DNA of 64,000 nt, taken from Candidatus Thorarchaeota archaeon. Lineage in GTDB: Archaea > Asgardarchaeota > Thorarchaeia > Thorarchaeales > Thorarchaeaceae. The notes below the pieces were generated by a model. That model saw nothing but the letters and a program-made list of their open reading frames with translations, was not told where the DNA came from and ran no database searches. How positions within the stretch are numbered: the first letter of the stretch is position 1; every line of letters starts with the position of its first letter. Position numbers and translations under genes: made by a program. Shown one piece after another: positions 19,017 to 56,590 of this stretch. The DNA lies in assembly GCA_029855935.1 (NCBI GenBank), contig JAGSHN010000017.1, forward strand, positions 8,812-72,811, given 5' to 3'.

Positions 19017-19117
19017 CCGGCATGCCTCCGGTCCCTGTGCGAGTCGTCAAAGAGCAGGTCAATATTAGTTATGCTGATTGGGATACGGCCGCCCAACCGT
19101 CGGCGAAGCTCGCCAAC

Positions 19118-35426: not shown

Positions 35427-35595
35427 GACCGACACGTGTGCAGTGGCATCTACCCTGCAGACAGTCAGCATCCCTGTGTGCTGGCCGGCTTCACCTGATG
35501 CGGAGTGCTTCGTTGAACAGCATCTTTGAGAGCACTTTTTATGGAGGGCCGTGACTCGTGACCAGTGGTACAGACCAGAGGCCCGAGGTGAGAGA

Positions 35596-40114: not shown

Positions 40115-40140
40115 GAACGCCCCTCAGTCGCAGAAGGAAC

Positions 40141-40160
40141 AGAGAGAAAAAATAGCAAGA
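40141..40160 (-). terminator. T-run downstream of the 1945-aa gene (convergent with the YbjN-like gene)
   Basis: The minus strand reads gctattttttctctct about 45-60 nt after the stop at 40204. Archaeal terminators are oligo-T tracts. Confidence 0.3.
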
Positions 40161-40203: not shown

Positions 40204-43200
40204 TTACCTTCTTCTGCGTAGGACGAGCACGACTATGATCACCAAGACGGCTCCCACACCAAGGAGGAGTACCGTCGTCTCTCCGCCGAAGGCGATACCT
40301 GATCCTCCAGTCGTGGGTATGGATGTCTCGGTAGTCATAAGGCCACCCCTACCGACGGTGTACGAGTAGGTCTGTGACTCGTAGTAGCCGCTGGCAGTCG
40401 ACACGCCGACCTTGAGGTAGACGGTCGTGCCATCCGGAAACGGTGGTACCGAACCAGTGTAGGTGGATGGCCCGGCTGATGACATCTCTACCGCCTGCCA
40501 GTTCTCCCCGTCAGTGCTGTAGTACAGTGTGACCGAGTCGACCAGCTCAGTGGAGTATATCTCAATGTATACTGTGACCGTGTCGCCCTCGGTGGGCAAC
40601 GCCGGGTCAATGCTCAGGGCACCGAACGTGACAGGCGATGGTCCGACTACAGATGTGCCACGAGAGGAGACGTAGCTGATGAACACCGGGTCCTGATAGA
40701 CACTGTAGCCGTCCCACTCCGGGAACCCGATGCTCACCATATACATGCTGCTGCTGAAGCTCCACGCGGTGGCAGACATTCCGTTGTCGGACTCGTATGC
40801 GTGCTCGAAGGTGCCCAGCGGGGTGGTGTAGCTCACGACATCATACGGGGCGGAGAGGTTCTTGCCCCAGTCGTACGTCGTTCCGCCCATTATCATCTCC
40901 GCGAAGCGGGCACCTGCAGTCTCAAGCTGGAAGGTGTCAGCGGCGACAGTGCTCTCAGTGTCGGTAAAGCTACCGTTGGCCTTGAACGCAAAGTCCGCAA
41001 GGTTCACCTCGGAGAAGTAGTTCAGTGCAAGGCTGCGATTCTCAAGGTTCCTGCGTCCGCCAAGGAGGTCAACGTCCCAGTTGCCGACGTAGTTGTCGAC
41101 CTTGATCCTCGCATGGTTGTTGATGTCCTCTGTCACGTTGGCGCAGAAGTGGACGAGAAACGACAGCTCATCAATCGTGACCCGAGTTGGTCGCTCGTCA
41201 AAGGTCCGCAGATCGCTGCCAGTCACCACACCAGCGTACCAGTCCCAGTAGCCGTACTGGGAGAACGGGAATACTGTGCCCGTGACGTTGAAGAAGGTGA
41301 CACCCCACGTCACCTCGTCTGTCAGGTTGAGATGCAGGTGGCCCGTGTCATTGTAGTCACCGTAGCCATAACCCGGAGTGACGAAGTCAACAGCGTCAAC
41401 GGAGTCCGGAATGAGGTAGTGCGTTAGCTCGCTGCTGGACGGGTTGTTCAGGTCAACCTGCATCAGCCCGTCGTTGTTGTCGTCCTCCCAGATCATCAGG
41501 CCTGAGAACTCATAGTGGACGCCGACGCCAAGCCAGTGCTCCACCTCACCCTCAGTATAGGACGTGCCGTAGCTCTGATCAATGCCGAAGCTCAGCCAAG
41601 TCCAGGTCTGGTTCTCCTCTGAGATCCAGTCCCAGCCCTGCTCCTGGGCCTCAGCGAGGATGTCGTCCCAAGTCACATTATTCACCATCCACGCAATGCC
41701 CCAGTAGCCAGGTGCGGGCTCACCGTCAGGTGACAACACCGTGTTGCGGATCTCAGTCATCTCGGTAGAGTTGACCGGGCTCATATCGCTGGCGTGGTAC
41801 CAGTAGAACGTCTCATTCCACTTGTACGACCACGCGAACATGTCGACACCCATCCACGAGTTGACGAACATCTCGTCGCCAAACTGTGAGCCATTGACAT
41901 CCCACATCAAGTTGATGTCCATATACTCCCACTCGTGCGACCACGTGTTCGTTGATGAGTAGACCTCAAGGACATAGTACTGGTCACCCTGCGTATTGAG
42001 GTCGCCATCAAGGTCGAGAGCTCCCGTCTCCGGATCCGTGGTCCAGAGTGACAGACCCCACAGACCGTAGTCGGGAGCACCGTATACGAGGGTATCCACG
42101 TTCTTGTAGAGGGTGCTCCGTATGGGCTCCGGGCCATACACGACGGGGTGACCCCACACTGGTACCCTCCGGTAGATCGCCTCCCACTTGGCGGTGGCAT
42201 TCACGGGTGTGCCCATGTAGGTGAAGTTGTAGATGGTCTTTGCGTCGAAAGTATTCACCATGTAGAGACGGTCACCGGAGTACGTCGCGTTCAGGACTAC
42301 GTAGGTGGCTATCGTACCCTGATGGACCTCATGCAGATAGTATCTCGTGGAGTTCAGGTCAAAGTAGTAGAACGTATCGTTGGTTGTATGGTAGAGCTCG
42401 ACCTTGTACGTGTTCACGACGTCGAGGTCATAGCCGCCGCTCTTGTACTCCCTGCCGTCGAGTGACCACCACACATAGTAGGAGATGTTGTTCTCCTTGA
42501 ATACGGTCGGCCACTCATCGGTGGACAGGAAGGTCGTACCGTTTGGTGCGAGGTACTCGAAGACGACCATCAGCTGGGTCGAATTGACGACCCAGACGGT
42601 ACCGTTGAGCAACTTGAGCAGGTTCGTCTTGTTGTCATACGGCTCAAGGTACGCATCGTAGGCCACCGTATCCACATGCGTGAAGGTCAGAGTGTCATCA
42701 TAGGTGCCAAACTTTGAGGTCTTGCCAATCTCCTGTGGATCCCAGATGTCGGTGCCATTGGCCGTCGCATGGGTCAGCAAGAGCTCGGTGACCGTATAGT
42801 TGATGGCATCGATGGTGACATAGTTGTTCGCCCCGTCCCAGTGGACTGGATAGAGAGTGTCATTGTACATCAACGACTTCTTGGTCGGAACAACTCCGCC
42901 CTGTGACTGGAAATGGTTGAGATCCCAGTCCGACTGTCCGCCTGCACCGGGGTACGGCATCTCGTACTTGATACCATCCTTCTCGTAGTACCAGAAGTTG
43001 TGCTGATACGCATCGACGAGGCGAATCCACTGGGAGTTGTACTCTCTGTACCAGTAGTATTCTGGCGCGCTGATCCGGTAGCGTGTGCCATCGATTGTTG
43101 CATAGTACTCCTTGGTGTCAGTGTCGTAGTCCACGCGGTAAAGTGTGCCATTCGTGTCCGTCATATAGTAGCACTCGTCACGGCTGGACCACCACCACCG

Positions 43201-46041
43201 GGAGATGTCAAGGACACTATCAAGACCGTAGCGCACGAACTGATGCTCTGTGTGCTCCCACGGAGAGATCACAATCTTGTCGTACAGTGTGAAGTTGTAG
43301 ACGTGATCTCTCTGGTAGGACGTGTCGGTACTCTGATGCACGTTGCCGTAGATGTCAATCCATGAGTAGTATTCCTGACCGCCGTACTCCCACACATACT
43401 CGTACTCCTGGCCTGTCAGGAACGACTCGCCGGGAGTGACGGTGACGTTGTAGATGTGTAGTGATGTGGTGTAGGTCGCAGGAATCTTCGTGCCGTTGAG
43501 GAGTTCGTAGTAGTAGACAGGCGTGTCGCTCTCGTGGTCCCAGTGATCATAGAAGAAGATCGTGGTGATAGGCTCATGGGTCCAGAAGTCCTCACTCTGA
43601 ACAGTCTTGACGAGATACTCCTGACCGTCGATGACTATGTACGGTTGTTCGTAGCCAGTGACTATCTCCGACGTGGGAACTCCACCATCGAAGACGTAGG
43701 CCAGCTTGTTGTACTCGACTGGGGTCATATATACCCGGTCGCCGCCGTAGTCAAAGCTGTACACCCAAGCCTCTTCCCAGGAGTACACCTCGTGCAGTCC
43801 CCACTCGCCCGTCTCATCCTCGTACCAGGTGAGATTCACGAAGGAGAAGTCCCACCAGTACTCGGATTCAGGCATCGTGTCGCTGAGGTTCACCTCGAAA
43901 GACGCGTAGAGGTCACCAAGGATGACCTGTTTCGTGAAGTTGCTCACGGTGGCGAAGACGGCTCCCTGTATCTCGGTCTCACGAGAGTGGCGGGCAGGGA
44001 AGTAGCTAACCCACTCGCCGGTCAGCTGGTTGTAGAACCACTCGGCCCAGTACCAGTCCTCTACCTGTTTCCAATTCCACATGGTGTAGTTGCCGTAGAC
44101 CCACTGCCACGCGTCAGCGCTCTCATTGTACTCGTAGTGCCAGCCAGTGGCGTTCTCCTCCACCCAGTCCCAGTGGAGACCGTACGTAAGGTTCCACTTG
44201 GTGGTGTAGTTGAAGAGCTTCATGCGGACTGTGCCATTGAAGTAGCAGAGTATGACGTAGTCAAGATCAGTCCAGACGGACTCGTTCTCGGACCACTCTC
44301 CCGTGCTGGCCTGCAGCGTGAACTTGACGCCATCAATATCATCCGCGACCTCACCGCCACCCTGCAGTGTCCCTTCAACGATGAAGTCTGACCCCTTGTT
44401 CACGTGCATCATCCAGCCCTCAGGCGGAGTGCCGTCGGGGTTGAGGATGTTTGCGATAGTCACAGGGGTCTCGATGGCCACCTTCCGCGCCATCTCAAAG
44501 CTCGTGAACGTGCCAAAGACGGGGTCGTTGTCCATCGCCACTTGAAATGGCATACCGTCGGCGGCCGTCACCTGGACATTAAGGTATATTGGATAGTCCT
44601 CAGTCTTGGGCATTGCATCTGTGAAGTGACCCACGAAGTCAACGACGTAGTATCGTCCGTTGTCGCTGTACGAACACAGCGACTCGTTCAGCTCGTAGAA
44701 CACGGGCAGGTCAGCGGGATATGGCTCACGAACCGTGATGAGCTCGTTCCACGTTCCCGGGACATAGTGATCGTACCGGTAGCCTTCGTACGAGTACATT
44801 GTTCCTACTGACCATGTACCAGAGGTGTGATTGTACAGTACGTCAATCTGGTAGGAGACAGTCACGTTGATGGTCTCGACCCAGTAGTCCCAGTCATTGG
44901 TCTGGTTATTCCACTCCATCATAAGCCGATTGATCTGGATCTCCTTGTACGGGGAGAGATAGATCTTCTGGCGCTCGGGATGCGTCCCGTACTTCATTAC
45001 GGGGACCTGATACGTCACAGTGCTGTTCCACACGTACGTCCCGAGAACAGGGTCGTAGACCCAGCCACCTGTACGGGCCTCTGTGGCCTCATACCAGTCC
45101 GTGACATTAGTCCAGACAACCATCGACTCCGGGATGGGAATCTCCACCTCGGTCGCGACTGGCTCCAGACCAGTTGAGTTCACGGTCATGACGAAGTCGC
45201 TGTTTCGCTGCACTGAGTAGATCGGATTGCCGGCCATGTCGAGCTTGTCGAAGATGAAGAGCCCGCCGAAAGATGCCCCGCGGGCCTGATAGGGATCGAC
45301 ACCGACAGCAAGCAGGAACCTCGACTGATAGTCACTCCAGACGCCGTTCCACTCGGTGTCATAAGCTCCTACAGAGAGCTCATACAGTCCGAGAATCGCG
45401 TCGCTCGTGAACCGCAGTACGAAGTCAAAGTAGAACGAGTACTGGTCGGAGTAGTTGGCGCAGGACGCTGCGTCAAGCTGTGCGAAGGTCCCTATTGGGG
45501 TGTCGGGTTGCTGTGTGTAGTTCCAGATGTTGCTCTCGACGGACCAAGTGGGAGACCACTCGTCCGTGGTGAATACCAGCCGAAAGTTCGCACTTATGTT
45601 GGTGGATACTGTCAACAGATTGCCATACACATCGACTTCCTTGATGGTGGCATTGCGACCCATCGCGTTGCGGGGAATGTTGACAGAGACTCTGATCCAT
45701 TCTCCAATGTTCACATAATCGTCAAACGTGACCTCGGTACCATTGGAGTAGTACACGTTGAACGTCGGTTTCGGGCCGAACATCCAGTTTCGGCTAGTCC
45801 ACGACCACTCATCAGTTGTGCTGTTTCGGTCGATGTGCCAGTTGACATCAGTACCAGTTTCACCCGATGGAGGAGGTGGCGGCGGTGGTGGCTCCTGAGT
45901 CACCGCTCGCACGGGCTCGACCGGGCTCGCTCCAGACTTGGCAGTGGCAGGAGGAGCATACACCGCGACGGAATAGAACATCGACACGGTGAACAGCATC
46001 ACAGTGATGAGTGACAGGATTCTCTTTGATTGCCCTATCAT
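40204..46041 (-). CDS. Giant secreted surface protein (1945 aa), W/Y/N-rich, one C-terminal Ig-like module, TM anchor plus RRRR tail
   Basis: Signal-like N-terminus ILSLITVMLFTVSMFYSVAVYAPPATA, then a poly-Pro stretch. About 50 N-x-S/T sequons by hand count and only about 5 Cys. The C-terminus is ...TTETSIPTTGGSGIAFGGETTVLLLGVGAVLVIIVVLVLRRRR. Colinear paralog of the upstream 2421-aa protein. Confidence 0.85.
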   Translation of the reverse strand: MIGQSKRILSLITVMLFTVSMFYSVAVYAPPATAKSGASPVEPVRAVTQEPPPPPPPPSGETGTDVNWHIDRNSTTDEWSWTSRNWMFGPKPTFNVYYSNGTEVTFDDYVNIGEWIRVSVNIPRNAMGRNATIKEVDVYGNLLTVSTNISANFRLVFTTDEWSPTWSVESNIWNYTQQPDTPIGTFAQLDAASCANYSDQYSFYFDFVLRFTSDAILGLYELSVGAYDTEWNGVWSDYQSRFLLAVGVDPYQARGASFGGLFIFDKLDMAGNPIYSVQRNSDFVMTVNSTGLEPVATEVEIPIPESMVVWTNVTDWYEATEARTGGWVYDPVLGTYVWNSTVTYQVPVMKYGTHPERQKIYLSPYKEIQINRLMMEWNNQTNDWDYWVETINVTVSYQIDVLYNHTSGTWSVGTMYSYEGYRYDHYVPGTWNELITVREPYPADLPVFYELNESLCSYSDNGRYYVVDFVGHFTDAMPKTEDYPIYLNVQVTAADGMPFQVAMDNDPVFGTFTSFEMARKVAIETPVTIANILNPDGTPPEGWMMHVNKGSDFIVEGTLQGGGEVADDIDGVKFTLQASTGEWSENESVWTDLDYVILCYFNGTVRMKLFNYTTKWNLTYGLHWDWVEENATGWHYEYNESADAWQWVYGNYTMWNWKQVEDWYWAEWFYNQLTGEWVSYFPARHSRETEIQGAVFATVSNFTKQVILGDLYASFEVNLSDTMPESEYWWDFSFVNLTWYEDETGEWGLHEVYSWEEAWVYSFDYGGDRVYMTPVEYNKLAYVFDGGVPTSEIVTGYEQPYIVIDGQEYLVKTVQSEDFWTHEPITTIFFYDHWDHESDTPVYYYELLNGTKIPATYTTSLHIYNVTVTPGESFLTGQEYEYVWEYGGQEYYSWIDIYGNVHQSTDTSYQRDHVYNFTLYDKIVISPWEHTEHQFVRYGLDSVLDISRWWWSSRDECYYMTDTNGTLYRVDYDTDTKEYYATIDGTRYRISAPEYYWYREYNSQWIRLVDAYQHNFWYYEKDGIKYEMPYPGAGGQSDWDLNHFQSQGGVVPTKKSLMYNDTLYPVHWDGANNYVTIDAINYTVTELLLTHATANGTDIWDPQEIGKTSKFGTYDDTLTFTHVDTVAYDAYLEPYDNKTNLLKLLNGTVWVVNSTQLMVVFEYLAPNGTTFLSTDEWPTVFKENNISYYVWWSLDGREYKSGGYDLDVVNTYKVELYHTTNDTFYYFDLNSTRYYLHEVHQGTIATYVVLNATYSGDRLYMVNTFDAKTIYNFTYMGTPVNATAKWEAIYRRVPVWGHPVVYGPEPIRSTLYKNVDTLVYGAPDYGLWGLSLWTTDPETGALDLDGDLNTQGDQYYVLEVYSSTNTWSHEWEYMDINLMWDVNGSQFGDEMFVNSWMGVDMFAWSYKWNETFYWYHASDMSPVNSTEMTEIRNTVLSPDGEPAPGYWGIAWMVNNVTWDDILAEAQEQGWDWISEENQTWTWLSFGIDQSYGTSYTEGEVEHWLGVGVHYEFSGLMIWEDDNNDGLMQVDLNNPSSSELTHYLIPDSVDAVDFVTPGYGYGDYNDTGHLHLNLTDEVTWGVTFFNVTGTVFPFSQYGYWDWYAGVVTGSDLRTFDERPTRVTIDELSFLVHFCANVTEDINNHARIKVDNYVGNWDVDLLGGRRNLENRSLALNYFSEVNLADFAFKANGSFTDTESTVAADTFQLETAGARFAEMIMGGTTYDWGKNLSAPYDVVSYTTPLGTFEHAYESDNGMSATAWSFSSSMYMVSIGFPEWDGYSVYQDPVFISYVSSRGTSVVGPSPVTFGALSIDPALPTEGDTVTVYIEIYSTELVDSVTLYYSTDGENWQAVEMSSAGPSTYTGSVPPFPDGTTVYLKVGVSTASGYYESQTYSYTVGRGGLMTTETSIPTTGGSGIAFGGETTVLLLGVGAVLVIIVVLVLRRRR

Positions 46042-46181
46042 TTTCCATCATCACCTGCTCTCGATTCACACGGATGCTGCCGTGACCCCCAGAGTGATGT
46101 TGGTGGCGGCTCCGGCAGGTCCAATGCATATCGACTAGTGAATACAGTATAATCTACTGGGAATTATTCGCGCAACCTGTG

Positions 46182-46190
46182 AATATAAGG
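46182..46190 (-). promoter_or_regulatory. TATA-like box CCTTATATT upstream of the 1945-aa gene
   Basis: The plus strand reads aatataagg, 141-149 nt upstream of the ATG at 46041. An identical 9-mer occurs at a similar distance upstream of the 2421-aa gene. Confidence 0.35.
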
Positions 46191-46280
46191 AAATCCTGTA
46201 TCATCCCTCATCAAGTTCTGAAATCACGTGCCACGGTAGAAGGACAGCAACACCAGTATTCAGGTCTGGCAGAAGAATAC

Positions 46281-46327
46281 GGAGAGAAAAAGAAAGGGAA
46301 GGCAACGGGCCCCAAGAGGGACCCGTG
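46281..46327 (-). terminator. Hairpin plus pyrimidine/T-rich tract after the 2421-aa gene
   Basis: The minus-strand transcript after the stop at 46337 reads CGGGTCCC-TCTT-GGGGCCCG (8-bp stem with one G-U pair), followed by TTGCCTTCCCTTTCTTTTTCTCTCC. Confidence 0.5.
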
Positions 46328-46336
46328 AACATTGCC

Positions 46337-49300
46337 TCACTTCTTGCGTTTCACCATCAGAGCCATCAGCACAATGACGAGAGCCAGTACTCCGACCACA
46401 CCGAGTAGCCCAAAGTCGAGAGACACCCCCGGACCTGGCGTGAATCCCGTGGTCGTAGAGGTCGTCTCCGTAGTGGTGGTCTCTGTGGTCGTCACTGTCA
46501 TGTCACTGACTGTGTAGCTCTGCTGCGCGGACTGTGATGACTTGCCCGCCGTGTCGTAGGCGACGACATAGTAGGTCACAACGGATCCATCCGCCTGCGG
46601 AGGAATCGTGCCAGTGTACTGGTTGCTGCCGATTGAAGACATCGTCACAGCAATCCACGCGCCACCGTCGACACTGTAGTACAGCGTGACATTGTACACA
46701 CCCATATCGTCCGTGACCGTCGCAGTGACTGTCACACTGTCACTCGACGTGGGCGATGCCTTGTCAATGGACACACTGGAGATTGTTGGCGGCGACACAT
46801 CGTCAGAGACCGTGTAGGATGCCTCCGCCGACTGCGATCTCTGCTCAAGGTTGTCATAGGCGACAACATAGAAGGTGACCACAGAGCCGTGTGGCTGCGC
46901 AGGGATGATGGCCCAGTAGGTGCTACCACTGGCCGTCATCAGGATACTGGTCCAGTTGCCGTCATCGACCTTGTAGTAGAGGGTCGCGTTCAGTATGGTG
47001 CCGTCGTCAAGGATAGTCACGCTGACGTTGACAGCATCCGAGGATGTCGGACTGGTGGGTGAGTAGCTCAGCGAGCCAATGCCCGGAGGCGTGTCACCCT
47101 CGGTGGAGAACCTGTACACGTACTGGTCGGTCGTGGCAACATTGCCCTGTCCGTCGGTCGCGCGTACACGATAGAAGACGTATGTACCAGGGGCTTGGTT
47201 TGGCACGGTGTAGCGCCACACATCCGCTCCCGAGTCGTATGTCATGTCCACGGTGGTGTCAGACCCGCTGATGGTGTAGATGAGTTGCACTGAGGAGAGT
47301 CCGGAGCCTCCGTTGTCGAAGACAGAGACCTCTACCACGAGGACCTCCTGACCACTGACCTCACCCTTGGTGCCGCTCACGTCAGAGATGACCGGAGCGA
47401 GATTGTCAGGAAAGTTGTAGTACATCGTTGACGACTCGATCATATTGCCGGCGGCGTCATAGACCCGGACCTTGTAGGCAGCAGTGTAGGCATAGTCACT
47501 GCTCCGGGTCAGATAGCCCTCCCACTGGCTGGTCGTGCTGTTGTAGTTCATTGAGATTGCCTCCTCGGTGTTCTGGATATATATCTCCACCCGGTCGACA
47601 CCAGAGTCGGTGTCCCTGGCCGATGCTGTGATCAGGACCGATGTCGATGTGGCGGTGCCTACGCCAATTGAGTCAATGGTCGGCGGTGTTGGGTCATTGT
47701 AGAAGGTATGGTCGATGGGTGAACTGGCAATGTAGTTGCCGGTGTAGTCCCGCACGTATACAACGAATGACGTACTGTACGGGTCCGTCCCGACCATCTC
47801 AACCGAGCCCTCCCATGTGTGCGTGTCGCCATTGTATTCGAGAGACACGTTCTGATGGAAGCCATCGGGATTGTAGACCCACACCTCTGCAACTCCTGAG
47901 CCACCAGTGTCGCTGGCAGCCACCTCGAAGCTGACTCGCTCCTTGCCGTCGACGAACCTCGTTGTTGCGGACAGCGAGTCGATGCTCGGGTCAGAATTGT
48001 CGGTCACCCCTCTTGAGGAGGAGTAGCTCACAAAGACCGGGTCCACCGACACCTTGTAGCCGTCCCACCACTTGTAGTTGATCAGTGTGTAGAACTGGCT
48101 CGTCGAGATCTCGAACGGAGTCGCCGTGACACCCATGTCTGACAGATACGCCTCCTCGAAGAGGTCGGCAGGTATGGTCTGAGCATCCACCGTGGTGTAC
48201 ATGGCGCTCCTGTTCCGGTCCCACTGATAGTGTACACCGCCGAGGTCCATCGACGCCACCTGAGCAGCAGCCGCCGCGACGGCGTATCTCGAAGACACAA
48301 CGGTCTGGTTGCCGCTGACCGGCTGACCGTGCTGGTCGAAATAGGTCGCATTGAGCGGCACACCGTTCTCAGACACCATCAGTACATCGGTGTAGAAGGC
48401 AATCCCAAGGCTACGGTTCTCCAACACACTGCGGCCTCCGGGAGCATCAGTGTCCCAGTTGCCAATGGTCACGTTGAACTTCACCGTGCCATTGTTTGAG
48501 CTGCCGCCCGTGAGGACACCTTGAAAAGCGGCGCCGAGCGAGATCTCGGAGACATTGGCGCGAACTGGTCGCTCATCGAAAGTCGAGAAGTCGCTGCCAG
48601 TCATCGCTCCTTGATACCAGTCCCAGTAGCTCTGAGTTCCGAACGGGTAGGCGGTTCCTGAGACGTTGTCGAAGGTCACACCAAATGGTACCGATGCGTT
48701 AAGGGGCCAGTTCTCTGAGCCGGATGTCAAGGAGGCATTCGGGGTGAGGAACTGAACTCCGCTCACGTCATCAGGCAGCCAGTAATGCGTGACCTCGCTG
48801 TTCTCTGGGTCATCAGGAATGAAGTCCATCACGTCGTTCTGGTTGTCATCCTCCCAAGAGAACAGACCAGCGTACTCGTACCACGAATCAACAGACATGA
48901 CGGAACCATTGCCCATATCCGACAGGTAGTGCTCGGAGAGCTCCCACCAGATCCAGCTCCACTCCTGCGAGTCCTGAATGGCCCAGTCCCAGCCTTCCTC
49001 CTCAGCCTCTTTCTTCAGGTCCTGCGAGGTGAAGTTCCGGGCCATCCACGCGACATCCCAGTAGCCCGGCCTCGGGTTGCCGGCATCGTCGAAGATTGTG
49101 GAGTTGATCTGCGCCCACTCTGCAGGGGTGACCACAGCACCACTGTCGGCCTTGTACCAAGTGTAGTTGTCAGACCAGAAGGTCGTCCAGTTCACGGTGA
49201 CTAGGCCCATGTAGGAGTCGACGTGGAACTCGTCGCCCACCTTGGTCGCATTGGGCTCCCACAGGATGGAGACCCATAGATACTGCTCCGTCTGGTTGTA

Positions 49301-52300
49301 GGTGTCCGTTGACTGGAATGTGTTTCTCACGTAGTACTGGTCGTTCGTTGTCGAGAGGTCCCCGTCAAGGTCGATTGCACCTGTATTAGGATCCTCTGTC
49401 CACGTCCTCATGTCCCAGAGGCCGAACTTCGGCGCGCCCACAATCACAGACCACTGCTGTCGCACAATCGTGATTGGGAGCGGAGCATAGTCCAGCTTCT
49501 TCCCAAGGCCCCAGAACTTGTAGACCTTGTAGATCATCTCACGTCCGCCTGTGACATTGTACGTTGTCGCTCCCATTGTGAAGTTGAACTGTGGGATGTC
49601 GTACCGGTGCTGTGAGTCATCGTGGTAGTCGACTATCTCGAACTCGTCTGTGGAGTTTACAAGCGCCGGATAAGACTCAACGATGAGGTTCTCATAGGGG
49701 CGCGACTCCCAAGAGTTCTTGTCAAAGTTGTACTGGTCGACGGTATAGGTCGTCTGGTTGCGCCAGACGCCCTGGAACAAGAACTGTGCGGGAGAGCCTG
49801 GCAGATAGTCGTCGGGTCTCATCGCCGTCACATTGACAATCTCCCCTGCCTCCCAAGTCAGCATCTGACCGTCGAGGTCCCAAGTGTAGAAGAACTCATG
49901 GACGTTGTGGCCCAGATCTTCATCATAGGGAGCGAAGTCGTATGCGTACGGTTCGGTCGTGTAGAAGACTGTCCCGTTCGAGAGAGTCACCTTGTAGAAC
50001 AGCGGCCGGTCAAAGTGAGTGTAGTTGAGAACACTCCCATCTGCAAGACGGGCAATCTCAGTGTCGCCTGTCCAGTCAGTGATACCCCCATCACCCCAGT
50101 CATTGAGCCAGCCGCTCTTCACATCGAACCATCCCTCGACCACGAACTCACGGGTATTGAGGTCCGTGTGGCCATAGGCAACGCGCCATCCGGCAAGGTT
50201 GATGGCCGGTACAGGTGTAGAGCCCCCAATATTAGTGCTCCACAGATAGTCGAATTCGTCCTTGGGCGCCCAGCTGTATGGTCTTCGTCCGAACTTGGTG
50301 AGATTGTAAGTCGTGCCATTGACAACTGCAGTGTAGAAGTCGTAGTCGTAGACATCTATGCCGTCGTCGTAGGTGTATGTACCATTGTATTGTGTGGCGG
50401 CCCACGTTTCGTTGATGAGGACGAAGATGTCTCCAGGGGTCTTGCTCTCAAGATCCCACGGATCCCAAGCGCCTGCGCCGGGATAGGGTAGCTCGTACTC
50501 GGTCCCGTTGATTGTGGTGAACGAGTAGGAGTCAAGGTACTTGTCCAGGGCAATCACGTGCTTTCCACTGAAGTTGCCCTCGTAGACTTGGAATGGCCAC
50601 ACTCCGTCCCAGAGCCAGTAGGTCGCTCCGTCGGTATGATTGACGTAATAGTACGCACTCCGATTGTACTCAGGACAGTGGCCCTTCCAGACCTCAATCT
50701 GTTCCCAAGTGCTGTTGATGTATATCACGTAGTGGTCATTATGCCACTCGGGCTCAGTTGCGTAGTAGATGACGGAGGAACCGTTTGCGATGACTCCCAG
50801 TCCGACAGGCTTCATCGGAATGGTGTCGAGGAGAACACTTGTGTAGTTCCATGGGTCTGGTCGGACAATCAGACTACCGTTGATGGCAGGCATATGTGAG
50901 TCCGTTCCGTTCCACCAGTGGTGATCCGTATAATTGCCAACTGATAGGAACGACTCACCAGTATCGAGGGTCGTGTTGTAGATCGGGGCGACCTTGCCGA
51001 ACTCTGCATACACTCTCGTTCCATTGAGGAGTTCGTAGTAGTGGACCCAGTTGCCCGAGTACTCTTGCCTGTGAGGGTCATACGCGTGGGGGTCCCACTC
51101 CTCGAACAGGATGTGCCGCCTTGTAGTCCCATCAGGCAGTGTCTCGGTGAACTCCTTGACGAAGTGCTTTTGACCTCCTATCATTACGTAGTGGTCAATC
51201 CGTGTGGGGTATATCACGTCGGTGTCGTTATTCCGCATCAATAGTGCCTTGAAGGGTGTGTCGACGTAGGTCCTCGTCCCGTTGTCGAGATAGCTGTACA
51301 CCAGCTGGTTGGTCCATCCAAGGGCCACGTGCTCGCCCCAGCCAGCCTCATAGTCGACAACCCACGTGAGGTTGCCGTAGTAGTAGTCCCAGTTCCACTC
51401 GAGCTCTGGCATGTCCGCCGTCGGCGTCACATCGAATGAGACCCTCAGGTCGTCTCCCTGTACGTAGTAGCTGAGATTTCCAACAAGGACGTAGGAGGCG
51501 GGCATCACTGTCTCATTACCGTGATAATGGACATACTCTGTTGTCCAGTTGTTAGTCTTGAAGTCCCAGACTAGGTCCTCCCAGTGCCACGTCGTCTCGT
51601 GGACCTGCCGCCACTCCCAGTATCCCGGAAAGACCTCAACATACTTCCATTCCCACGTCTCGCCATAGACGTACTGGACACGGTGCGTGTAGTTATAGAC
51701 CGTCACCTCAAATTGCCCAGCCGGGCTCGCCTTCATCCAGATCTCAACCTGTGCGTCTTGAGACCAGCTGGAGTTGTCAGTCTTGCCCCAGTCATAGGAC
51801 CATCCAGTCAGCACAAAGGCGACACCGTCGATGTCGTCTGCATAGGCCGCACCGCCCTGAAGGCGCGATGTCACCTCAAACGTGTCCCCGTGATCGGTTA
51901 GAAACATCCAAGATGGCTCGAAGGGCTGTCCCTTGTGAAGAAGTTTCACCACGGACACGGGTGTGTCCACAGCCAGTTGGTTGAACATGTCAGCACTAAA
52001 GGTCTCGTGTGCAACGAAGGGCAGGTAATCGAATCGTGGCAGATAGCGCCCGAATATGTCCGCGACCGAGACGTCCACCCGCAGTGACTGGGTAACTTCA
52101 TTGCTGGGGAGCGTGATGTTCTCCGACACGTGGCCTCTGAAGACCACCACCTCGTTGTCGCCGTCTGTGTAGTGCTCTGATGTTGTCCCGTTCAGCACGT
52201 ATACAATGGGCAATGTGCCATTGGTGGGGTAGGGCTCGTAGTACCACTTCATTGTCTCGAACCAATGGCCTCTGTCATCCTGAACGTACTCGGCCATCTG

Positions 52301-53602
52301 GTAGGCCAAGTAGGTGGACCACGTATCTGTACCAAACGAGTAGACGACGGCCTGAAAGAGGTTCGCCGTTCGATTCTCCGTCACACCCCTCTCGGGGTTG
52401 TACACCTGATACTCGAACCACGGGTCGGTGTACTTCTCCCGATTCTCCCAGTGGTAGCCCCAGCGTTCCTCGCTATACGTGACCACAATGGAATCATTCC
52501 AGTAGTAGGTGCCTGTGGCGGTGTCATACACCCAGCCGCCAGTGACGTTGTGCTCGACAACGTAGGGACCGTCAACGTATTCCCTGACGCTGACCACACT
52601 GGGCACGCTGAAGTACACAGAGGCGTTGTCGAGGTTCGTGCCGTGTATAGTCACCGTCGTGTTGAAGTCAACGCCACGGGTGGCAGAATATACAAAGTTG
52701 CCATCGTCGTCCACCCTGTCGGGCATGAAGTACCCGCCTATGGACTGGGCAAGGGCCTGATCCACCGGCATCCCTACAGCACGGTAGGTCAGCTCGTCCT
52801 CCCTGCTCTCCGCGAGCATATTGAGATTGTTGTCGAAGGCAATGGCGTGAAAGCCCCATAGACCCAGCGGGGCAGATGTGTTGAACCGCAGCTGGAACTG
52901 AGCCCAGATATTCTCGGGGCCCACGTAGAAGGCACAGGCTGGTTCATCCATCTCCATGAACGGATCCACTGGAGGCCCGAAGTAGTCCTCGAATGTCCAA
53001 CCCGGAGGCAGCTCCTGCGGAGGCTCCTCTATGGGAGTAAAGTTGTAGGTGGAATATATCTGCCATCGTGCAGTGGGAATCTCGTAGAAACCGATGAACT
53101 CTGTGGTAGCCGTATCTGAACCGCCAGGCATCCACATCTCCGACAGATTCAGGTACATGCCCGAGAATGCGACGGCATAGGGGACCTGGCCGCCAACCGC
53201 GGTCTTAGGTATCTTGAGTATGTAGTTCGCCCACCCATTGATGGCAACCGTATCATTCTTCTCAATCAGCTGGTCGGTTGTGGCGTTTCTTATCGTCCAC
53301 GTTATCCTCGGCCCGAACTGCCAATAGCTTGAGGAAAACGTGTCAGTCCACGCTTCGCTGTTTACTCCCTGCTCCCAGTCGACACGGGTATAGTTCTGGG
53401 GATAGTCAGCAGGCGACATCGCACGCGGGCCAGTGTCCAGAGGCACTACGTCCGGTGTGGACTCGCTGGCTGTGGGTGAGGTGTCGCTCATAATCGGTGA
53501 GGGGGAGAGGAACAACGAGAGCGCGAACAGAAATATGACTGACAGACCAATATGAGCAGCTCTCTTTTCCATCGTAAAGACTCCTATAGATTGTTCTCTC
53601 AA
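46337..53602 (-). CDS. Giant secreted surface protein (2421 aa), W/Y/N-rich, five C-terminal Ig-like modules, T-rich linker, TM anchor plus KRKK tail
   Basis: Signal-like N-terminus HIGLSVIFLFALSLFLSPSPIMS. Long blocks are shared with the 1945-aa protein, for example GGWVYDTATGTYYWN, YELPYPGAG, HYYELLNGT, AIDLDGDLSTTNDQYYV, EEEGWDWAIQDSQEW, YWDWYQGAMTGSDFSTFDERP, and WDGYKVSVDPVFVSYSSSRG. The C-terminus is ...TTTGFTPGPGVSLDFGLLGVVGVLALVIVLMALMVKRKK. Confidence 0.85.
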   Translation of the reverse strand: MREQSIGVFTMEKRAAHIGLSVIFLFALSLFLSPSPIMSDTSPTASESTPDVVPLDTGPRAMSPADYPQNYTRVDWEQGVNSEAWTDTFSSSYWQFGPRITWTIRNATTDQLIEKNDTVAINGWANYILKIPKTAVGGQVPYAVAFSGMYLNLSEMWMPGGSDTATTEFIGFYEIPTARWQIYSTYNFTPIEEPPQELPPGWTFEDYFGPPVDPFMEMDEPACAFYVGPENIWAQFQLRFNTSAPLGLWGFHAIAFDNNLNMLAESREDELTYRAVGMPVDQALAQSIGGYFMPDRVDDDGNFVYSATRGVDFNTTVTIHGTNLDNASVYFSVPSVVSVREYVDGPYVVEHNVTGGWVYDTATGTYYWNDSIVVTYSEERWGYHWENREKYTDPWFEYQVYNPERGVTENRTANLFQAVVYSFGTDTWSTYLAYQMAEYVQDDRGHWFETMKWYYEPYPTNGTLPIVYVLNGTTSEHYTDGDNEVVVFRGHVSENITLPSNEVTQSLRVDVSVADIFGRYLPRFDYLPFVAHETFSADMFNQLAVDTPVSVVKLLHKGQPFEPSWMFLTDHGDTFEVTSRLQGGAAYADDIDGVAFVLTGWSYDWGKTDNSSWSQDAQVEIWMKASPAGQFEVTVYNYTHRVQYVYGETWEWKYVEVFPGYWEWRQVHETTWHWEDLVWDFKTNNWTTEYVHYHGNETVMPASYVLVGNLSYYVQGDDLRVSFDVTPTADMPELEWNWDYYYGNLTWVVDYEAGWGEHVALGWTNQLVYSYLDNGTRTYVDTPFKALLMRNNDTDVIYPTRIDHYVMIGGQKHFVKEFTETLPDGTTRRHILFEEWDPHAYDPHRQEYSGNWVHYYELLNGTRVYAEFGKVAPIYNTTLDTGESFLSVGNYTDHHWWNGTDSHMPAINGSLIVRPDPWNYTSVLLDTIPMKPVGLGVIANGSSVIYYATEPEWHNDHYVIYINSTWEQIEVWKGHCPEYNRSAYYYVNHTDGATYWLWDGVWPFQVYEGNFSGKHVIALDKYLDSYSFTTINGTEYELPYPGAGAWDPWDLESKTPGDIFVLINETWAATQYNGTYTYDDGIDVYDYDFYTAVVNGTTYNLTKFGRRPYSWAPKDEFDYLWSTNIGGSTPVPAINLAGWRVAYGHTDLNTREFVVEGWFDVKSGWLNDWGDGGITDWTGDTEIARLADGSVLNYTHFDRPLFYKVTLSNGTVFYTTEPYAYDFAPYDEDLGHNVHEFFYTWDLDGQMLTWEAGEIVNVTAMRPDDYLPGSPAQFLFQGVWRNQTTYTVDQYNFDKNSWESRPYENLIVESYPALVNSTDEFEIVDYHDDSQHRYDIPQFNFTMGATTYNVTGGREMIYKVYKFWGLGKKLDYAPLPITIVRQQWSVIVGAPKFGLWDMRTWTEDPNTGAIDLDGDLSTTNDQYYVRNTFQSTDTYNQTEQYLWVSILWEPNATKVGDEFHVDSYMGLVTVNWTTFWSDNYTWYKADSGAVVTPAEWAQINSTIFDDAGNPRPGYWDVAWMARNFTSQDLKKEAEEEGWDWAIQDSQEWSWIWWELSEHYLSDMGNGSVMSVDSWYEYAGLFSWEDDNQNDVMDFIPDDPENSEVTHYWLPDDVSGVQFLTPNASLTSGSENWPLNASVPFGVTFDNVSGTAYPFGTQSYWDWYQGAMTGSDFSTFDERPVRANVSEISLGAAFQGVLTGGSSNNGTVKFNVTIGNWDTDAPGGRSVLENRSLGIAFYTDVLMVSENGVPLNATYFDQHGQPVSGNQTVVSSRYAVAAAAAQVASMDLGGVHYQWDRNRSAMYTTVDAQTIPADLFEEAYLSDMGVTATPFEISTSQFYTLINYKWWDGYKVSVDPVFVSYSSSRGVTDNSDPSIDSLSATTRFVDGKERVSFEVAASDTGGSGVAEVWVYNPDGFHQNVSLEYNGDTHTWEGSVEMVGTDPYSTSFVVYVRDYTGNYIASSPIDHTFYNDPTPPTIDSIGVGTATSTSVLITASARDTDSGVDRVEIYIQNTEEAISMNYNSTTSQWEGYLTRSSDYAYTAAYKVRVYDAAGNMIESSTMYYNFPDNLAPVISDVSGTKGEVSGQEVLVVEVSVFDNGGSGLSSVQLIYTISGSDTTVDMTYDSGADVWRYTVPNQAPGTYVFYRVRATDGQGNVATTDQYVYRFSTEGDTPPGIGSLSYSPTSPTSSDAVNVSVTILDDGTILNATLYYKVDDGNWTSILMTASGSTYWAIIPAQPHGSVVTFYVVAYDNLEQRSQSAEASYTVSDDVSPPTISSVSIDKASPTSSDSVTVTATVTDDMGVYNVTLYYSVDGGAWIAVTMSSIGSNQYTGTIPPQADGSVVTYYVVAYDTAGKSSQSAQQSYTVSDMTVTTTETTTTETTSTTTGFTPGPGVSLDFGLLGVVGVLALVIVLMALMVKRKK
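46502..47992 (-). repeat. Five tandem Ig-like/FN3-like modules of about 100 aa at the C-terminus of the 2421-aa protein
   Basis: Module pattern: PPxIxSxS...SDxVxVxxxVxDxxGxxxVxLxYxxxxxxWxxxxMxxxxxxxYxGxIPxxxxGxxVxYYVxAxDxxG. The last two modules are the most similar (...SYTVSDDVSPPTISSVSIDKASPTSSDSVTVTATVTDDMGVYNVTLYYSVDGGAWIAVTM...). One homologous module lies in the 1945-aa gene at about 40351-40647. Confidence 0.75.
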
Positions 53603-53749: not shown

Positions 53750-53758
53750 AATATAAGG
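53750..53758 (-). promoter_or_regulatory. TATA-like box CCTTATATT upstream of the 2421-aa gene
   Basis: The plus strand reads aatataagg, 148-156 nt upstream of the ATG at 53602. It is identical to the box at 46182-46190. Confidence 0.35.
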
Positions 53759-53845: not shown

Positions 53846-56590
53846 TTACCAGATAGGCAATCCAGAGGCAACCATCTGCACCACCAGTTCGGTGATGTAA
53901 GCCTCGACAAGTGCAGCAATGACTAGGAAGAACAGAACGAGACCATACGTCCGCCATAGCCGGCCATCGGTGAGCACCTTCTTGGTGTGCTCGGGGACAT
54001 CGTCCCATCGCTCCTCGACCACCACGGGCGCTATCTCACGTGCTATCCTGAAGGATGCAGCGGCCGCGAAGAGGAATGCTGGAATCTCCACAACACCGTG
54101 AGGCAGCACGTAGGCAAGAAAGAGAGTCAGGTCGCCGATGAATGCGTGAAGTGTTGCCAGGCCAGCAAGCCACAGTGCGGTTGACAGGACTTCCGCGATA
54201 CCCACAGACATCAGGCTAAACCTGATGTATGTGATGAGCGGGTCCTCCGCCCGAACCTCAGGCCTACCCGAATACACGAGCTTGTATGGGCCCGCAATTA
54301 TCATCGGTAGCACTACAAGGGCGATGAGCGTGAACTGATCATCGTAGACAAAGTACTCGATAGTGAAGGCCAGTATCAGCGGCGGGAACCACCATGGGTT
54401 TGCCCGGCCCTCCGTGGCCTTACTTGCGAACGCGGCCACCAGCATCACAACGAACAGCGGTACGAGTATGACAGCCGCTCGATAACCCAGTGCCGCACTG
54501 AATGTCCACGGCCAGAACGCATCACCCTCCGCTTGACTCGGGCGGAGGACTCCTCTCTCGATATCAAGAATCGTCCAGATGTATGCCACAGCAGCACCAA
54601 TCGCAGCGAGCACAATTCCAAGGACGCCTACCCGGATATCACCTCCGCGCTTCTGAGCAGCCACGAGCCACAGAATGATCGACCAAAACACAGGACCCGC
54701 CACCAGCATCAGGAAGGTCCTGATGATGTTGTGTTCGAGCACTATGGTGAATCGCAAAGATGTTGAGGCCAGTACAAGCTCCAGACCGTCAGGCAGACCA
54801 ATCTCTGCGATGAGAGCATCAAACCACGGGCCGACGAAGTAGGGGTCCGCCACAAAGGAGAGTGCCGCGACACCGATCACTGTCAGGACAATCCCCCCGA
54901 AGAACATACCAACCGCATCGTAGATGTCGCGAGCGTGCACATTCAACAGCGGCCCCGAAGACTCGCCACTCTCCTCGCGCCACCTCTCCCTGTACTCGAA
55001 GTAGTACATCAGGAAGAGCGTCGCGCTGATGAAGATGGGCATATTGACCACGAACTGTGCGGCAAGCCTGTAGAGCCATTCCTCTGCTCCCGGAATCAGG
55101 ATGAGCGGACGCAGGTGGTAGAAGGTGCCGAAGGTCTCGCTCTGAACAGGAGTGGTGGCAAGTTGGATCAAATAGTCAAGGCCGGGAAGTATGAAATAGC
55201 TCAACGTCGACGCGACGAAACCTGCAAAGAAGGCGAACGACTCCATGCCAACGGAGAGTCGGTCTTGGACATAGTGGCTGATAACGCCAGTGAGTATCAT
55301 CGTCACCATTGGTATTAGCAGAATGAGAACGACCCACAACGATGGCAGAATTGTCATGAGGTTGTTTGGTGGTGCCGACAGCGCTGTGAAGACATCATAG
55401 TCAGACGGGTCGGTAGTGAAGTCGATGGCCTTTGGGTGGACCGTGAACACACCCAGCAGGTGAACTGCTGTGTATAGGGTCACACCCATAATCGCGGCAA
55501 CGAAAACGCCCGCCGTGAACACGCCAGTCGACACCGACGACACGAGCGTCGTGATGACACCGCGCAGGCTAAAGCCCCTGATCTTGGACCCGGCATGGAG
55601 CAGAGAGTCAAAAATGCGTTTATACAAGATGACGGAGAATCGCTCCACGAGTGGGAGGACCACGATTGCAAACAGGATTGGCGGGAATGCCTGGATGAGG
55701 CCGGCGACGTAGTACATCCCGAGATAGCCAAGGAGCCCATTATAGTAGGCATTGAGAATGTCGTTGGCAAGCAAAATCAACGTCAATAGCAGGTTCAACC
55801 TGAAGAACCAACCGAGCACGCCACGCATCATTTCGCCGCCCACATCGCGGTCGCCAAGTTTTAGGCCGGCGCCCTTTGCTATGCGGTTCGAGGCGGGGTA
55901 GCCGAAACGGTAGATCCAAGTCAGGAATATCATCACACCGAAAACGTAGCCGTTGGGTGGAGTGTAGTCGGGGCTACCAGTGACCATCAGGACGTAGTCG
56001 GAGAACGTCCCTATGTACACAGGTACTGTCGGCAAGAGCGTCGCCAGTCCTATTATTAGGTAGTCTCTCCAGGCCGACGACCACGCACGACTCTGTACGG
56101 CAGGATCCAGAGGATTCTCGGGCACTCCCTCAAACCGCAGGTTGTGTAACCTATCTCTGAAACCCGAGTAACCATCTGACACAGGCTCACTACCGCTCAG
56201 CTTCTTGATGACATTGCTGAACTTCATCTTCAAGGGGTCTTGAAGTGCCATCTTGACTGCGAGCACTACCATGCCGAACAGGACTGCGAAGAACGACACC
56301 ATTATCCATGTGAGTAGTTCCTGCAGTGCGTAGGCAAACTGGAACACGAATTCGAGGCCGAAGATCTGAAGAAATACATGGTCAGGCACGAAGGGGTCAA
56401 AGTACAATGGTACGAGTTCAGACTGGACCATCTCGTAGTACAAGAAGTAGGTCACAGACTTGATGTATAGAAGTATTATGAAGGCCTCGATGAAACGGTT
56501 TCGCTTTCTGAAGAATATCAGGTACAGCAATGACACAATTATTGGCGGTAGGAGCTCAAAGACTATCGTGAAGGCCGTTAGTGTCACCAT
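53846..56590 (-). CDS. Large polytopic membrane protein (914 aa) with SpoIIM-like (DUF95) C-terminal region
   Basis: More than 20 hydrophobic segments. The C-terminal part has LEHNIIRTFLMLVAG and LPHGVVEIPAFLFAAAASFRIAREI, matching the SpoIIM-family HG-x-x-E-x-PA motif. The N-terminal 600 aa or so have no motif that I recognise. Confidence 0.75.
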   Translation of the reverse strand: MVTLTAFTIVFELLPPIIVSLLYLIFFRKRNRFIEAFIILLYIKSVTYFLYYEMVQSELVPLYFDPFVPDHVFLQIFGLEFVFQFAYALQELLTWIMVSFFAVLFGMVVLAVKMALQDPLKMKFSNVIKKLSGSEPVSDGYSGFRDRLHNLRFEGVPENPLDPAVQSRAWSSAWRDYLIIGLATLLPTVPVYIGTFSDYVLMVTGSPDYTPPNGYVFGVMIFLTWIYRFGYPASNRIAKGAGLKLGDRDVGGEMMRGVLGWFFRLNLLLTLILLANDILNAYYNGLLGYLGMYYVAGLIQAFPPILFAIVVLPLVERFSVILYKRIFDSLLHAGSKIRGFSLRGVITTLVSSVSTGVFTAGVFVAAIMGVTLYTAVHLLGVFTVHPKAIDFTTDPSDYDVFTALSAPPNNLMTILPSLWVVLILLIPMVTMILTGVISHYVQDRLSVGMESFAFFAGFVASTLSYFILPGLDYLIQLATTPVQSETFGTFYHLRPLILIPGAEEWLYRLAAQFVVNMPIFISATLFLMYYFEYRERWREESGESSGPLLNVHARDIYDAVGMFFGGIVLTVIGVAALSFVADPYFVGPWFDALIAEIGLPDGLELVLASTSLRFTIVLEHNIIRTFLMLVAGPVFWSIILWLVAAQKRGGDIRVGVLGIVLAAIGAAVAYIWTILDIERGVLRPSQAEGDAFWPWTFSAALGYRAAVILVPLFVVMLVAAFASKATEGRANPWWFPPLILAFTIEYFVYDDQFTLIALVVLPMIIAGPYKLVYSGRPEVRAEDPLITYIRFSLMSVGIAEVLSTALWLAGLATLHAFIGDLTLFLAYVLPHGVVEIPAFLFAAAASFRIAREIAPVVVEERWDDVPEHTKKVLTDGRLWRTYGLVLFFLVIAALVEAYITELVVQMVASGLPIW

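Follow-up and report, generated by a model that had tools for sequence, protein, structure and literature searches.

Two adjacent genes on the reverse strand of a Candidatus Thorarchaeota contig (JAGSHN010000017.1 of assembly GCA_029855935.1, positions 8,812 to 72,811; this whole stretch of 64,000 nucleotides [nt] is termed the window herein) encode a pair of giant paralogs, A and B, which are exported, C-terminally anchored all-beta proteins whose core, next to the membrane, is conserved, while the distal part varies more. We propose, and give an even chance to, the reading that A and B are structural cell-envelope glycoproteins that would form the main coat of Thorarchaeota, either as a surface-layer (S-layer)-like lattice or as an amorphous covering. 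A preliminary description of this DNA had suggested a previously undescribed cell-surface system involved in envelope, adhesion or polymer binding. The surface location fits our searches, the glycosylation sites of the proteins and the sorting signals of their relatives, while the choice between the three roles remains a matter of inference, which is weighed below.

The two minus-strand open reading frames (ORFs) are present as first described, with one correction. ORF A has 1945 amino acids (aa); ORF B reaches the 2421 aa initially reported only when extended to a TTG at 53602 (46337..53602). We took 46337..53572 as gene B, encoding 2411 aa, because the public gene call (P0017) places the start at the ATG at 53572 and a GGAG lies 9-12 nt 5' of this ATG. 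BLASTP of A against B returned a single colinear alignment (A 9-1858, B 8-1931; 28% identity, 617-619 bits, E = 0) spanning approximately 2,000 columns, whereas the top score against A of B shuffled 20 times was 25 bits. The proteins are thus giant colinear paralogs, as had been claimed, and the eight motif pairs quoted in support of that claim were all found, in the same order in both proteins. Orthologs of A were 37-48% identical to it across 92-100% of its length, and those of B 37-53% identical across 79-100%. Hidden Markov models (HMMs) of the family matched A with E = 0 and 9e-248, and the N-terminal model matched B with E = 0 (core in Table 1).

Hydropathy profiles revealed only two hydrophobic segments per protein, one resembling a signal peptide at the N-terminus and one a transmembrane helix at the C-terminus, which bears out the signal peptides and membrane anchors of the preliminary description; the combination of export and anchoring that characterizes archaeal surface-coat glycoproteins was found in both A and B. 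The signal peptides are of the Sec type, and the ectodomains measure about 1,850-2,350 residues. The transmembrane helix follows a Thr/Gly/Pro-rich stretch and is itself followed by a short, basic tail on the cytoplasmic side, RRRR in A and KRKK in B. Signal peptide and C-terminal anchor were seen in nearly all complete family members, and the tripartite C-terminus recurs family-wide. A shared C-terminal GG sorting motif was considered and dropped, since only 29 of 59 members have it and no other ORF in the window ends in this way.

Composition hints at extensive glycosylation. A and B contain 52 and 68 N-X-S/T sequons, respectively, versus 17 and 21 expected by composition, and their density (2.7-2.8 per 100 aa) compares with 0-0.6 per 100 aa in cytoplasmic proteins encoded in the window. 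Heavily glycosylated archaeal S-layer proteins carry one N-glycosite per 30-40 residues (PMC11284389), and the sequon density of A and B, one per 36-37 residues, equals theirs. For each of 18 sequons, the position is retained in at least 60% of 23 members, drawn from clades sharing only 25-30% identity; three of the 18 (N611, N849, and N1455 of A) are invariant, and sequons make up 18 of the 26 Asn columns that are conserved. The sequons are under strong position-specific selection and, together with the invariant residues, indicate purifying selection on the family. Both proteins have an isoelectric point of 4.24, a K+R content of 4.8% and a high content of aromatic residues (W 4.0-4.4%, Y 7-8.2%), with 5 Cys in A and 2 in B.

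In the 23-member alignment, conservation is highest at A ~1291-1810, termed the core herein, and lowest at ~900-1290. The core contains a loop of the form A-[LIV]-D-L-D-G-D/N...T..DQ, whose invariant positions, shared by all clades, are A57, D59, L60, D61, G62, T66, D69, and Q70 (numbering of the core alignment). From its resemblance to DxDxDG-type loops we infer that the DLDGD...DQ loop is a candidate Ca2+ site. Internal repeats were sought by windowed, masked BLAST and by hhalign of alignment blocks, since whole-protein self-BLAST was uninformative. The single immunoglobulin (Ig)-like module near the C-terminus of A is 35-39% identical to repeats at the C-terminal end of B (E = 9e-18 and 2e-6), and the B repeats aligned to each other (E = 1e-5 to 7e-14). 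No further sequence repeats were found in the body of A or B by masked, windowed BLAST. Profile-profile comparisons with hhalign showed internal modules of distant similarity only, in that residues ~182-238 of A resemble ~437-497 (89% probability) and that ~842-905 resemble ~1158-1221 (97% probability; BLAST E = 0.001).

Searches against known families placed the body of these proteins in none of them. Pfam identified no family across the ~1,750-residue body in 23 members, and no domain in ten distant members; its only matches (DUF7743, GlgE_dom_N_S, and CBM_56) fell in the terminal Ig-like repeats of clade B. NCBIfam had no match for A or B, phmmer and profile searches of the PDB yielded none with either giant, with profiles of the core or of the full length, or with a neighboring 914-aa membrane protein, and no enzymatic domain was detected in A or B by profile or structure searches. 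We then modeled A with AlphaFold2 in two parts, and the models are of moderate confidence overall (predicted local distance difference test [pLDDT] 66 and 73). Residues 36-1235 were predicted to be all-beta, with some strands of 25-35 residues (pLDDT 73, predicted template modeling score [pTM] 0.47), and residues 1236-1812, which include the core, to consist of long beta-hairpins and a few helices (pLDDT ~75 on the folded part, pTM 0.65). Foldseek searches of the PDB with the N-terminal 1,200 residues returned tandem Ig-like arrays (E = 7e-7 to 1e-3), among them PrgB, antigen I/II C123, RbmA, alpha-2-macroglobulin, complement C3, and transglutaminase. The TM-scores of these matches were at most 0.18 for the long ones and 0.32 for RbmA, at 7-11% identity, so that the modeled likeness is that of generic beta-sandwich chains. 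For the core model, no match at E <= 1e-3 was found in the PDB or BFVD; porin-, GH31-, and class II fusogen-like matches were rejected as generic similarity of long antiparallel strands. Profile and structure searches therefore concur with the initial impression that only the terminal Ig-like modules are recognizable, and neither assigned the core or body to a well-known family.

The family extends well beyond this contig. A word-indexed protein search gave 24 clusters, the named ones all from Candidatus Thorarchaeota, which fell into three clades (A-like, B-like, and C), and repeating it with a 23-sequence profile added no members among the 8,000 candidates to which it was limited; the row of P0018 was left out of one alignment. 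An exhaustive HMMER search with a 15-sequence core profile reached beyond Thorarchaeota, to 175 cluster representatives at E <= 1e-3 (91 at E <= 1e-30). The matches came in three sizes: giants of 1,800-2,500 aa; proteins of 1,000-1,300 aa with a C-terminal core, such as Njordarchaeota MDO8097612.1; and proteins of 500-750 aa that match the core solely in its C-terminal half (profile ~190-515), such as Thorarchaeota P0130 (TXT56416.1), Promethearchaeota P0144 (MFX0014851.1), and Hodarchaeota P0150 (MFX0174190.1). Heimdallarchaeota LC_3 encodes a full-length member (OLS26682.1, 2016 aa).

Genome scans, which covered one genome per GTDB species and were pattern-based rather than exhaustive, found the combination of N-terminal part and core in ~70 assemblies. 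Most are Thorarchaeota; the full architecture also occurs in Hermod-, Njord-, and Baldrarchaeota, in unclassified Promethearchaeati, and in at least 13 Bathyarchaeia, on contigs of up to 634 kb. The presence of full-length homologs in so many independent assemblies excludes A and B being assembly artifacts, an outcome that would have undone the preliminary description, as would an assignment of the core to a well-known family. A literature search covering the family, member accessions, Loki-CTERM/Heimdall-CTERM and Thorarchaeota expression found no paper bearing on the family.

A neighbor-joining tree of the cores resolved a Thorarchaeota-type clade A, a Thorarchaeota-type clade B, and a third clade consisting of clade C and the Njord-, Baldr-, and Bathyarchaeia sequences. 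The A and B clades of this tree imply that the duplication is old and that both copies were retained; the paralogs appear to have been kept since early Thorarchaeota evolution. Across the phylum, the family appears as colinear, non-repetitive orthologs, which is what would be expected of a core structural gene and not of an accessory one. In several Thorarchaeota genomes, either two clade-A-type copies sit on separate contigs or A and B lie 10-16 kb apart (L011 and L049 in JABCTJ01, L027 and L036 in DAOVDG01, L033 and L069 in JBHLRS01), and this points to recurrent duplication and rearrangement. On one Bathyarchaeota contig (CAWKCH010000008.1, L098:1876-8739) the giant gene is spread over five consecutive same-strand ORFs, as a pseudogene or through assembly frameshifts. 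A clade-C member that groups with a Logan-derived sequence comes from a contig of 3,984 nt labeled Candidatus Micrarchaeota (L054, QMVG01000058.1), and this label is probably a binning error.

Sorting signals were found in some distant members: P0158 matched the NCBIfam model Heimdall-CTERM with 26.9 bits (cut-off 24) and P0168 matched Loki-CTERM with 20.2 bits (cut-off 19.9), with weaker matches in P0066, P0098, P0144, and P0061. Because P0158 and P0168 pass these models, at least part of the family belongs to a recognized class of C-terminally sorted Asgard surface proteins. NCBIfam found neither signal (NF033507, NF045529) in A or B, which differ from these relatives in ending in a plain transmembrane helix and an Arg/Lys tail; the CTERM models cover only the last ~26 residues. 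The 500-750-aa proteins (P0127-P0176, from Thor-, Hod-, and other Promethearchaeota) are themselves exported and C-terminally anchored, some with Heimdall-CTERM or Loki-CTERM signals, and represent a smaller stand-alone module.

The closest analogues of A and B in function and architecture are two archaeal S-layer systems, although the proteins qualify for membership in neither. The haloarchaeal cell surface glycoprotein (CSG) has a signal peptide, an acidic Ig-like ectodomain, many sequons, a Thr-rich stretch and a C-terminal anchor with a basic tail, and is monocistronic. All of these features of the CSG (TIGR04216 halo_surf_glyco, HVO_2072 family) are matched by A and B. The differences are that A and B have no TIGR04216 match (a 15-bit match to the tail was seen only in the Heimdallarchaeota member P0066), exceed the CSG two- to threefold in length, have no PGF-CTERM, possess a 500-residue core lacking a known structural relative, and exist as two ancient paralogs. 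In the Sulfolobales, SlaA lacks a membrane anchor and rests on the unrelated stalk protein SlaB, whereas A and B are mutually homologous and each has its own transmembrane anchor. SlaA had no sequence match to our proteins and was not among the top 50 Foldseek matches. The likeness lies in the adjacent gene pair, the very large all-beta multidomain protein and a similar sequon density (PMC11284389). Taken together, these comparisons place A and B within archaeal surface glycoproteins, as a new family and possibly with a new core fold.

Expression signals also bear on how the two proteins might be used. The 9-mer CCTTATATT occurs twice in the 64 kb, both times 5' of a giant gene, where 0.1 occurrences would be expected. 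The sequence CTTATATT is retained in 27 of 52 loci, at -110 to -142 of A orthologs (~20 loci) and at -65 to -285 of B orthologs. In leaders aligned from 14 loci, GCGCGCC recurs ~40 nt 3' of the box and GGAG precedes the ATG, and a leader of ~100 nt is predicted for each giant gene. Because the CCTTATATT boxes are unique to the giants within the window and CTTATATT is retained in orthologs, we conclude that each giant gene has its own conserved TATA-like promoter, in line with the promoter-like boxes noted previously. The terminator-like hairpin noted between the genes is likewise there, as a hairpin with a T-rich tract, and T-rich tracts lie 3' of both stop codons. Each gene would thus be driven by a separate copy of one box, which suggests co-expression of A and B and possibly a two-component coat.

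As structural envelope glycoproteins, A and B would be glycosylated at their sequons after export by the oligosaccharyltransferase AglB and held at the membrane by the C-terminal anchor. The conserved core, probably Ca2+-stabilized, would serve as a base contacting neighboring subunits (A-A, B-B or A-B), and the beta-sandwich modules and long beta-hairpins would project outward as an exposed, faster-evolving canopy. Cultured Loki- and Heimdallarchaeia have an amorphous protein coat, the proteins of which are not named in these reports (10.1101/2025.11.06.686947; PMC12993045). In P. syntrophicum, proteomics failed to detect the presumed S-layer proteins (PMC11284389), and an S-layer was seen by electron microscopy in one cultivated member of the Bathyarchaeia (Bathyarchaeum tardum; PMC10477458).

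Several observations weigh against such a coat role. It is deduced wholly from sequence, and no significant similarity of A or B to known S-layer families was found (TIGR04216, Pfam and NCBIfam S-layer models, S-layer chains in the PDB). The cultured Loki- and Heimdallarchaeia studied to date have no paracrystalline S-layer (10.1101/2025.11.06.686947; PMC12993045), and B. tardum was absent from the carrier genomes in our pattern-based, non-exhaustive search. By codon usage (effective number of codons 47-49), A and B rank among the more biased genes of the window without standing out, and as a proxy for expression this measure did not discriminate; the conserved promoter box and leader are no more than suggestive of high abundance. 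Because the AlphaFold2 models are of moderate confidence, the failure of Foldseek to match the core argues only weakly for a new fold. Lastly, the top Foldseek matches of the N-terminal part are adhesins, which suit an adhesive role equally well.

In that case A and B would be giant adhesins, anchored beta-sandwich stalks that bind syntrophic partners, mineral or organic particles or matrix and form no continuous coat, which we consider unlikely, though worth keeping in play. The chain of beta-sandwich domains in the N-terminal 1,200 residues resembles PrgB, antigen I/II C123 and Vibrio RbmA, a biofilm matrix protein. The best matches were PrgB (8beg, E = 7e-7), antigen I/II C123 (7l0o, 3qe5), and RbmA (4kkq), and those to 8beg, 7l0o, 3qe5, and 4ofq (E = 7e-7 to 3e-4) indicate a tandem beta-sandwich stalk like that of Ig-array adhesins, if in a generic way, given the low TM-scores above. 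The proteins are also very long, aromatic-rich (W 4.4%, Y 8.2%), and C-terminally anchored, B has extra Ig-like spacer repeats, and cultured Asgard archaea are described in the literature as living in obligate partner contact. However, no adhesin family match or binding head was found in A or B (Pfam, NCBIfam, PDB), and profile searches of the body detected no adhesive tip, lectin or carbohydrate-binding module. Adhesins tend to have a patchy distribution and to differ in their numbers of copies and repeats, whereas this family is colinear, lacks near-identical tandem repeats, and occupies a fixed locus throughout Thorarchaeota in the form of 1:1 orthologs. A and B further differ from Ig-array adhesins in their archaeal C-terminal anchor, and their conservation peaks next to the membrane, not distally.

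The aromatic-rich core raises a second alternative, that A and B are surface proteins that bind or degrade detrital polymers, with the core as a possibly catalytic beta-supersandwich suited to sediment archaea. We regard this as improbable. W and Y contents are very high, the core has invariant W, D, E, and H residues, and the family is common to two unrelated sediment lineages. The C-terminal repeats of clade B weakly match CBM_56 and GlgE N/S, and the highest Foldseek probabilities of the core were to GH31 glucosidases (8e4k, 0.44; 7qqf, 0.35) and heparinase II (2fuq, 0.20). Those GH31 and heparinase matches are, however, non-significant (E >= 1e-2, TM-score ~0.14), and Pfam, NCBIfam, and PDB profiles identified no catalytic domain of a glycoside hydrolase, lyase or peptidase. 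The invariant polar residues sit in the Ca-loop-like motif and the sequons and are not active-site-like, and genes for transporters or sugar metabolism are not conserved beside the giant gene.

Class II fusion proteins have a beta-rich domain with long hairpins, an Ig-like domain, a stalk and a transmembrane anchor, and the order of domains in A and B (a beta-rich part with very long hairpins, Ig-like domain, stalk, anchor) recalls them. That core, Ig-like domain, stem and anchor form a class II fusogen-like (fusexin-like) module for membrane or cell-cell fusion is nonetheless very unlikely. Bunyavirus Gc and retroviral class II Env were among the core matches (7a59, 8jkd, 6egt, 7a4a; E = 1e-2 to 8e-2), but with probabilities of 0.03-0.06 and TM-scores of ~0.07, and porins in the same list were equally good. 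The viral structure library BFVD gave no match either, and A and B are four to five times the length of known fusogens; as the core model is of moderate confidence, the structure searches speak against a three-domain class II fold without strongly excluding it. We attach next to no credence to an artifact of assembly or gene calling, or a decaying pseudogene pair, which has nothing in its favor beyond the single homolog split into five ORFs (L098), given the unbroken ORFs of 1945 and 2411 codons, the same full-length architecture in ~70 independent assemblies including the complete chromosome CP070761.1, and the purifying selection apparent from invariant residues and conserved sequons.

The reading of A and B as coat glycoproteins can be carried further, to a proposal that we consider less likely than not. 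The family would be the principal envelope protein of Thorarchaeota and of Heimdallarchaeota LC_3, Hermod-, Njord-, and Baldrarchaeota, and would be common to Bathyarchaeia, with a 500-residue core of new fold. Thorarchaeota would build a two-paralog A/B coat, and the smaller CTERM proteins with the C-terminal half-core would be reduced versions that make the amorphous coat of cultured Asgard cells. In models of eukaryote origin, the Asgard cell surface is the site of partner interactions, protrusions and membrane remodeling. The family is a concrete candidate for the Asgard cell coat, shows all the sequence hallmarks expected of a major surface glycoprotein, and could mark envelope biology in two groups that rank among the most abundant archaea of sediments. 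Our analysis supplies domain boundaries, a separately expressible 500-residue core and a list of ~70 carrier genomes, and thereby a target for metaproteomics, for labeling by antibodies or in cryo-electron tomography, and for structure determination; if the core truly is a new fold, a gap in domain databases would be filled.

Table 1. Features of the giant paralog locus in the 64,000-nt window (window coordinates; residue numbers refer to the encoded protein)
Feature	Position	Strand	Remarks
Giant paralog A (clade A)	40204..46041	-	ORF from ATG, 1945 aa
A signal peptide region, about aa 1-33	45943..46041	-	Hydrophobic aa 8-26 after basic N-terminus
A N-terminal ectodomain, aa 60-790	43672..45864	-	Three distantly related all-beta modules, strands of 25-35 residues
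A middle region, aa 791-1290	42172..43671	-	Lowest conservation; two related modules with YYYELLNGT-type motif
A membrane-proximal core, aa 1291-1810	40612..42171	-	Highest conservation, 57 invariant columns, fold not recognized
A ALDLDGDLxTxxDQYYV loop, aa 1341-1357	41971..42021	-	Invariant; candidate Ca2+-binding site
A Ig-like module, single, aa 1811-1900	40342..40611	-	Aligns to B C-terminal repeats; aa 1802-1900 by masked self-BLAST
A Thr/Gly-rich linker, transmembrane anchor (aa 1923-1941) and RRRR tail	40207..40341	-	
T-rich tract after A stop codon, archaeal terminator-like	40141..40160	-	Hairpin at 40141..40118
TATA-like box CCTTATATT of gene A	46182..46190	-	~130 nt 5' of ATG
Hairpin and T-rich tract between B and A, terminator-like	46283..46325	-	
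Giant paralog B (clade B)	46337..53572	-	2411 aa from ATG at 53572
B signal peptide region	53483..53572	-	Hydrophobic aa 5-23
B N-terminal and middle ectodomain, aa 60-1342	49547..53395	-	Colinear with A
B core, aa 1343-1870	47963..49546	-	Core HMM E = 2e-225
B loop AIDLDGDLSTTNDQYYV within core	49328-49378	-	
B Ig-like repeats, ~5 in tandem, ~100 aa each, aa 1871-2360	46493..47962	-	Internal BLAST; aa 1858-2360 by masked self-BLAST
B Thr-rich linker, transmembrane anchor (aa 2389-2407) and KRKK tail	46340..46492	-	
TATA-like box CCTTATATT of gene B	53750..53758	-	~180 nt 5' of ATG
914-aa polytopic membrane protein	53846..56590	-	~20 transmembrane segments, SpoIIM-like C-terminus

The window is chromosomal, encoding Nuo/Fpo-type subunits, MutS, MutL, transaldolase, a prolyl-tRNA synthetase (ProRS)-like protein, RACo, ferritin, and an M28 peptidase, and the base composition and codon usage of the A/B region are like those of the remainder. 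In the complete Thorarchaeota chromosome CP070761.1 the same order was found: ProRS, Usp, CTP-transferase, M28 peptidase, ferritin, membrane protein, B, A. The membrane protein, upstream of B, is the 914-aa polytopic protein (Table 1), which has ~20 hydrophobic segments, 0 Cys, and 0 sequons, and matches PF01944 (SpoIIM) at aa 813-900 (51.8 bits versus a cut-off of 26.9; profile positions 86-162 of 163), leaving ~800 residues without an assignment. The preliminary description had united this protein with A and B in a 16.4-kb locus, but our comparison gives no support to a functional unit. Homologs of the 914-aa protein were found only in Thorarchaeota-type genomes. Of 48 informative loci, 37 have a giant gene as the immediate downstream neighbor of this protein. 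On the opposite flank, 51 of 52 loci have the M28 peptidase next to it, and 44 of 52 have ferritin. Linkage to the giants is therefore no tighter than background synteny with these housekeeping neighbors, and we dropped functional coupling as an explanation.

Three arrangements were seen in Thorarchaeota: membrane protein, B, and A in succession (the window, CP070761.1, and several more); membrane protein followed by A alone; and membrane protein followed by B, with A 10-16 kb further. The giants of Bathyarchaeia, Baldr-, and Njordarchaeota, and clade C have no homolog of the 914-aa protein beside them; outside Thorarchaeota the gene is solitary, with no conserved neighbors found, and the gene context of a small paralog was uninformative. 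A second complete Thorarchaeota chromosome (L156, CP070658.1, 2.58 Mb) encodes a 914-aa homolog with no giant within 9 kb downstream, and is not among the 80 best giant-gene loci. Other very large ORFs (1,000-1,600 aa) with no detectable relation to the family lie directly upstream of the giant gene at L003:3-4814, L057:1-3939, and L053:2732-5776, and these ORFs of clade C, Promethearchaeati, and Njordarchaeum loci may be additional surface proteins.

Elsewhere in the window, a second tandem pair of surface-type paralogs (19022-21235 and 21271-23247, both on the plus strand) was identified, each with a NosD/right-handed beta-helix and a bacterial TSP3 repeat, 14 Cys per protein, and 1.8-2.0 sequons per 100 aa. 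The window also encodes complete, bacterial-type MutS (27611-30220, plus strand; domains I-V) and MutL (35551-37398, plus strand), ~5 kb apart in this Asgard genome, and at locus L002 MutL is likewise near a giant gene.

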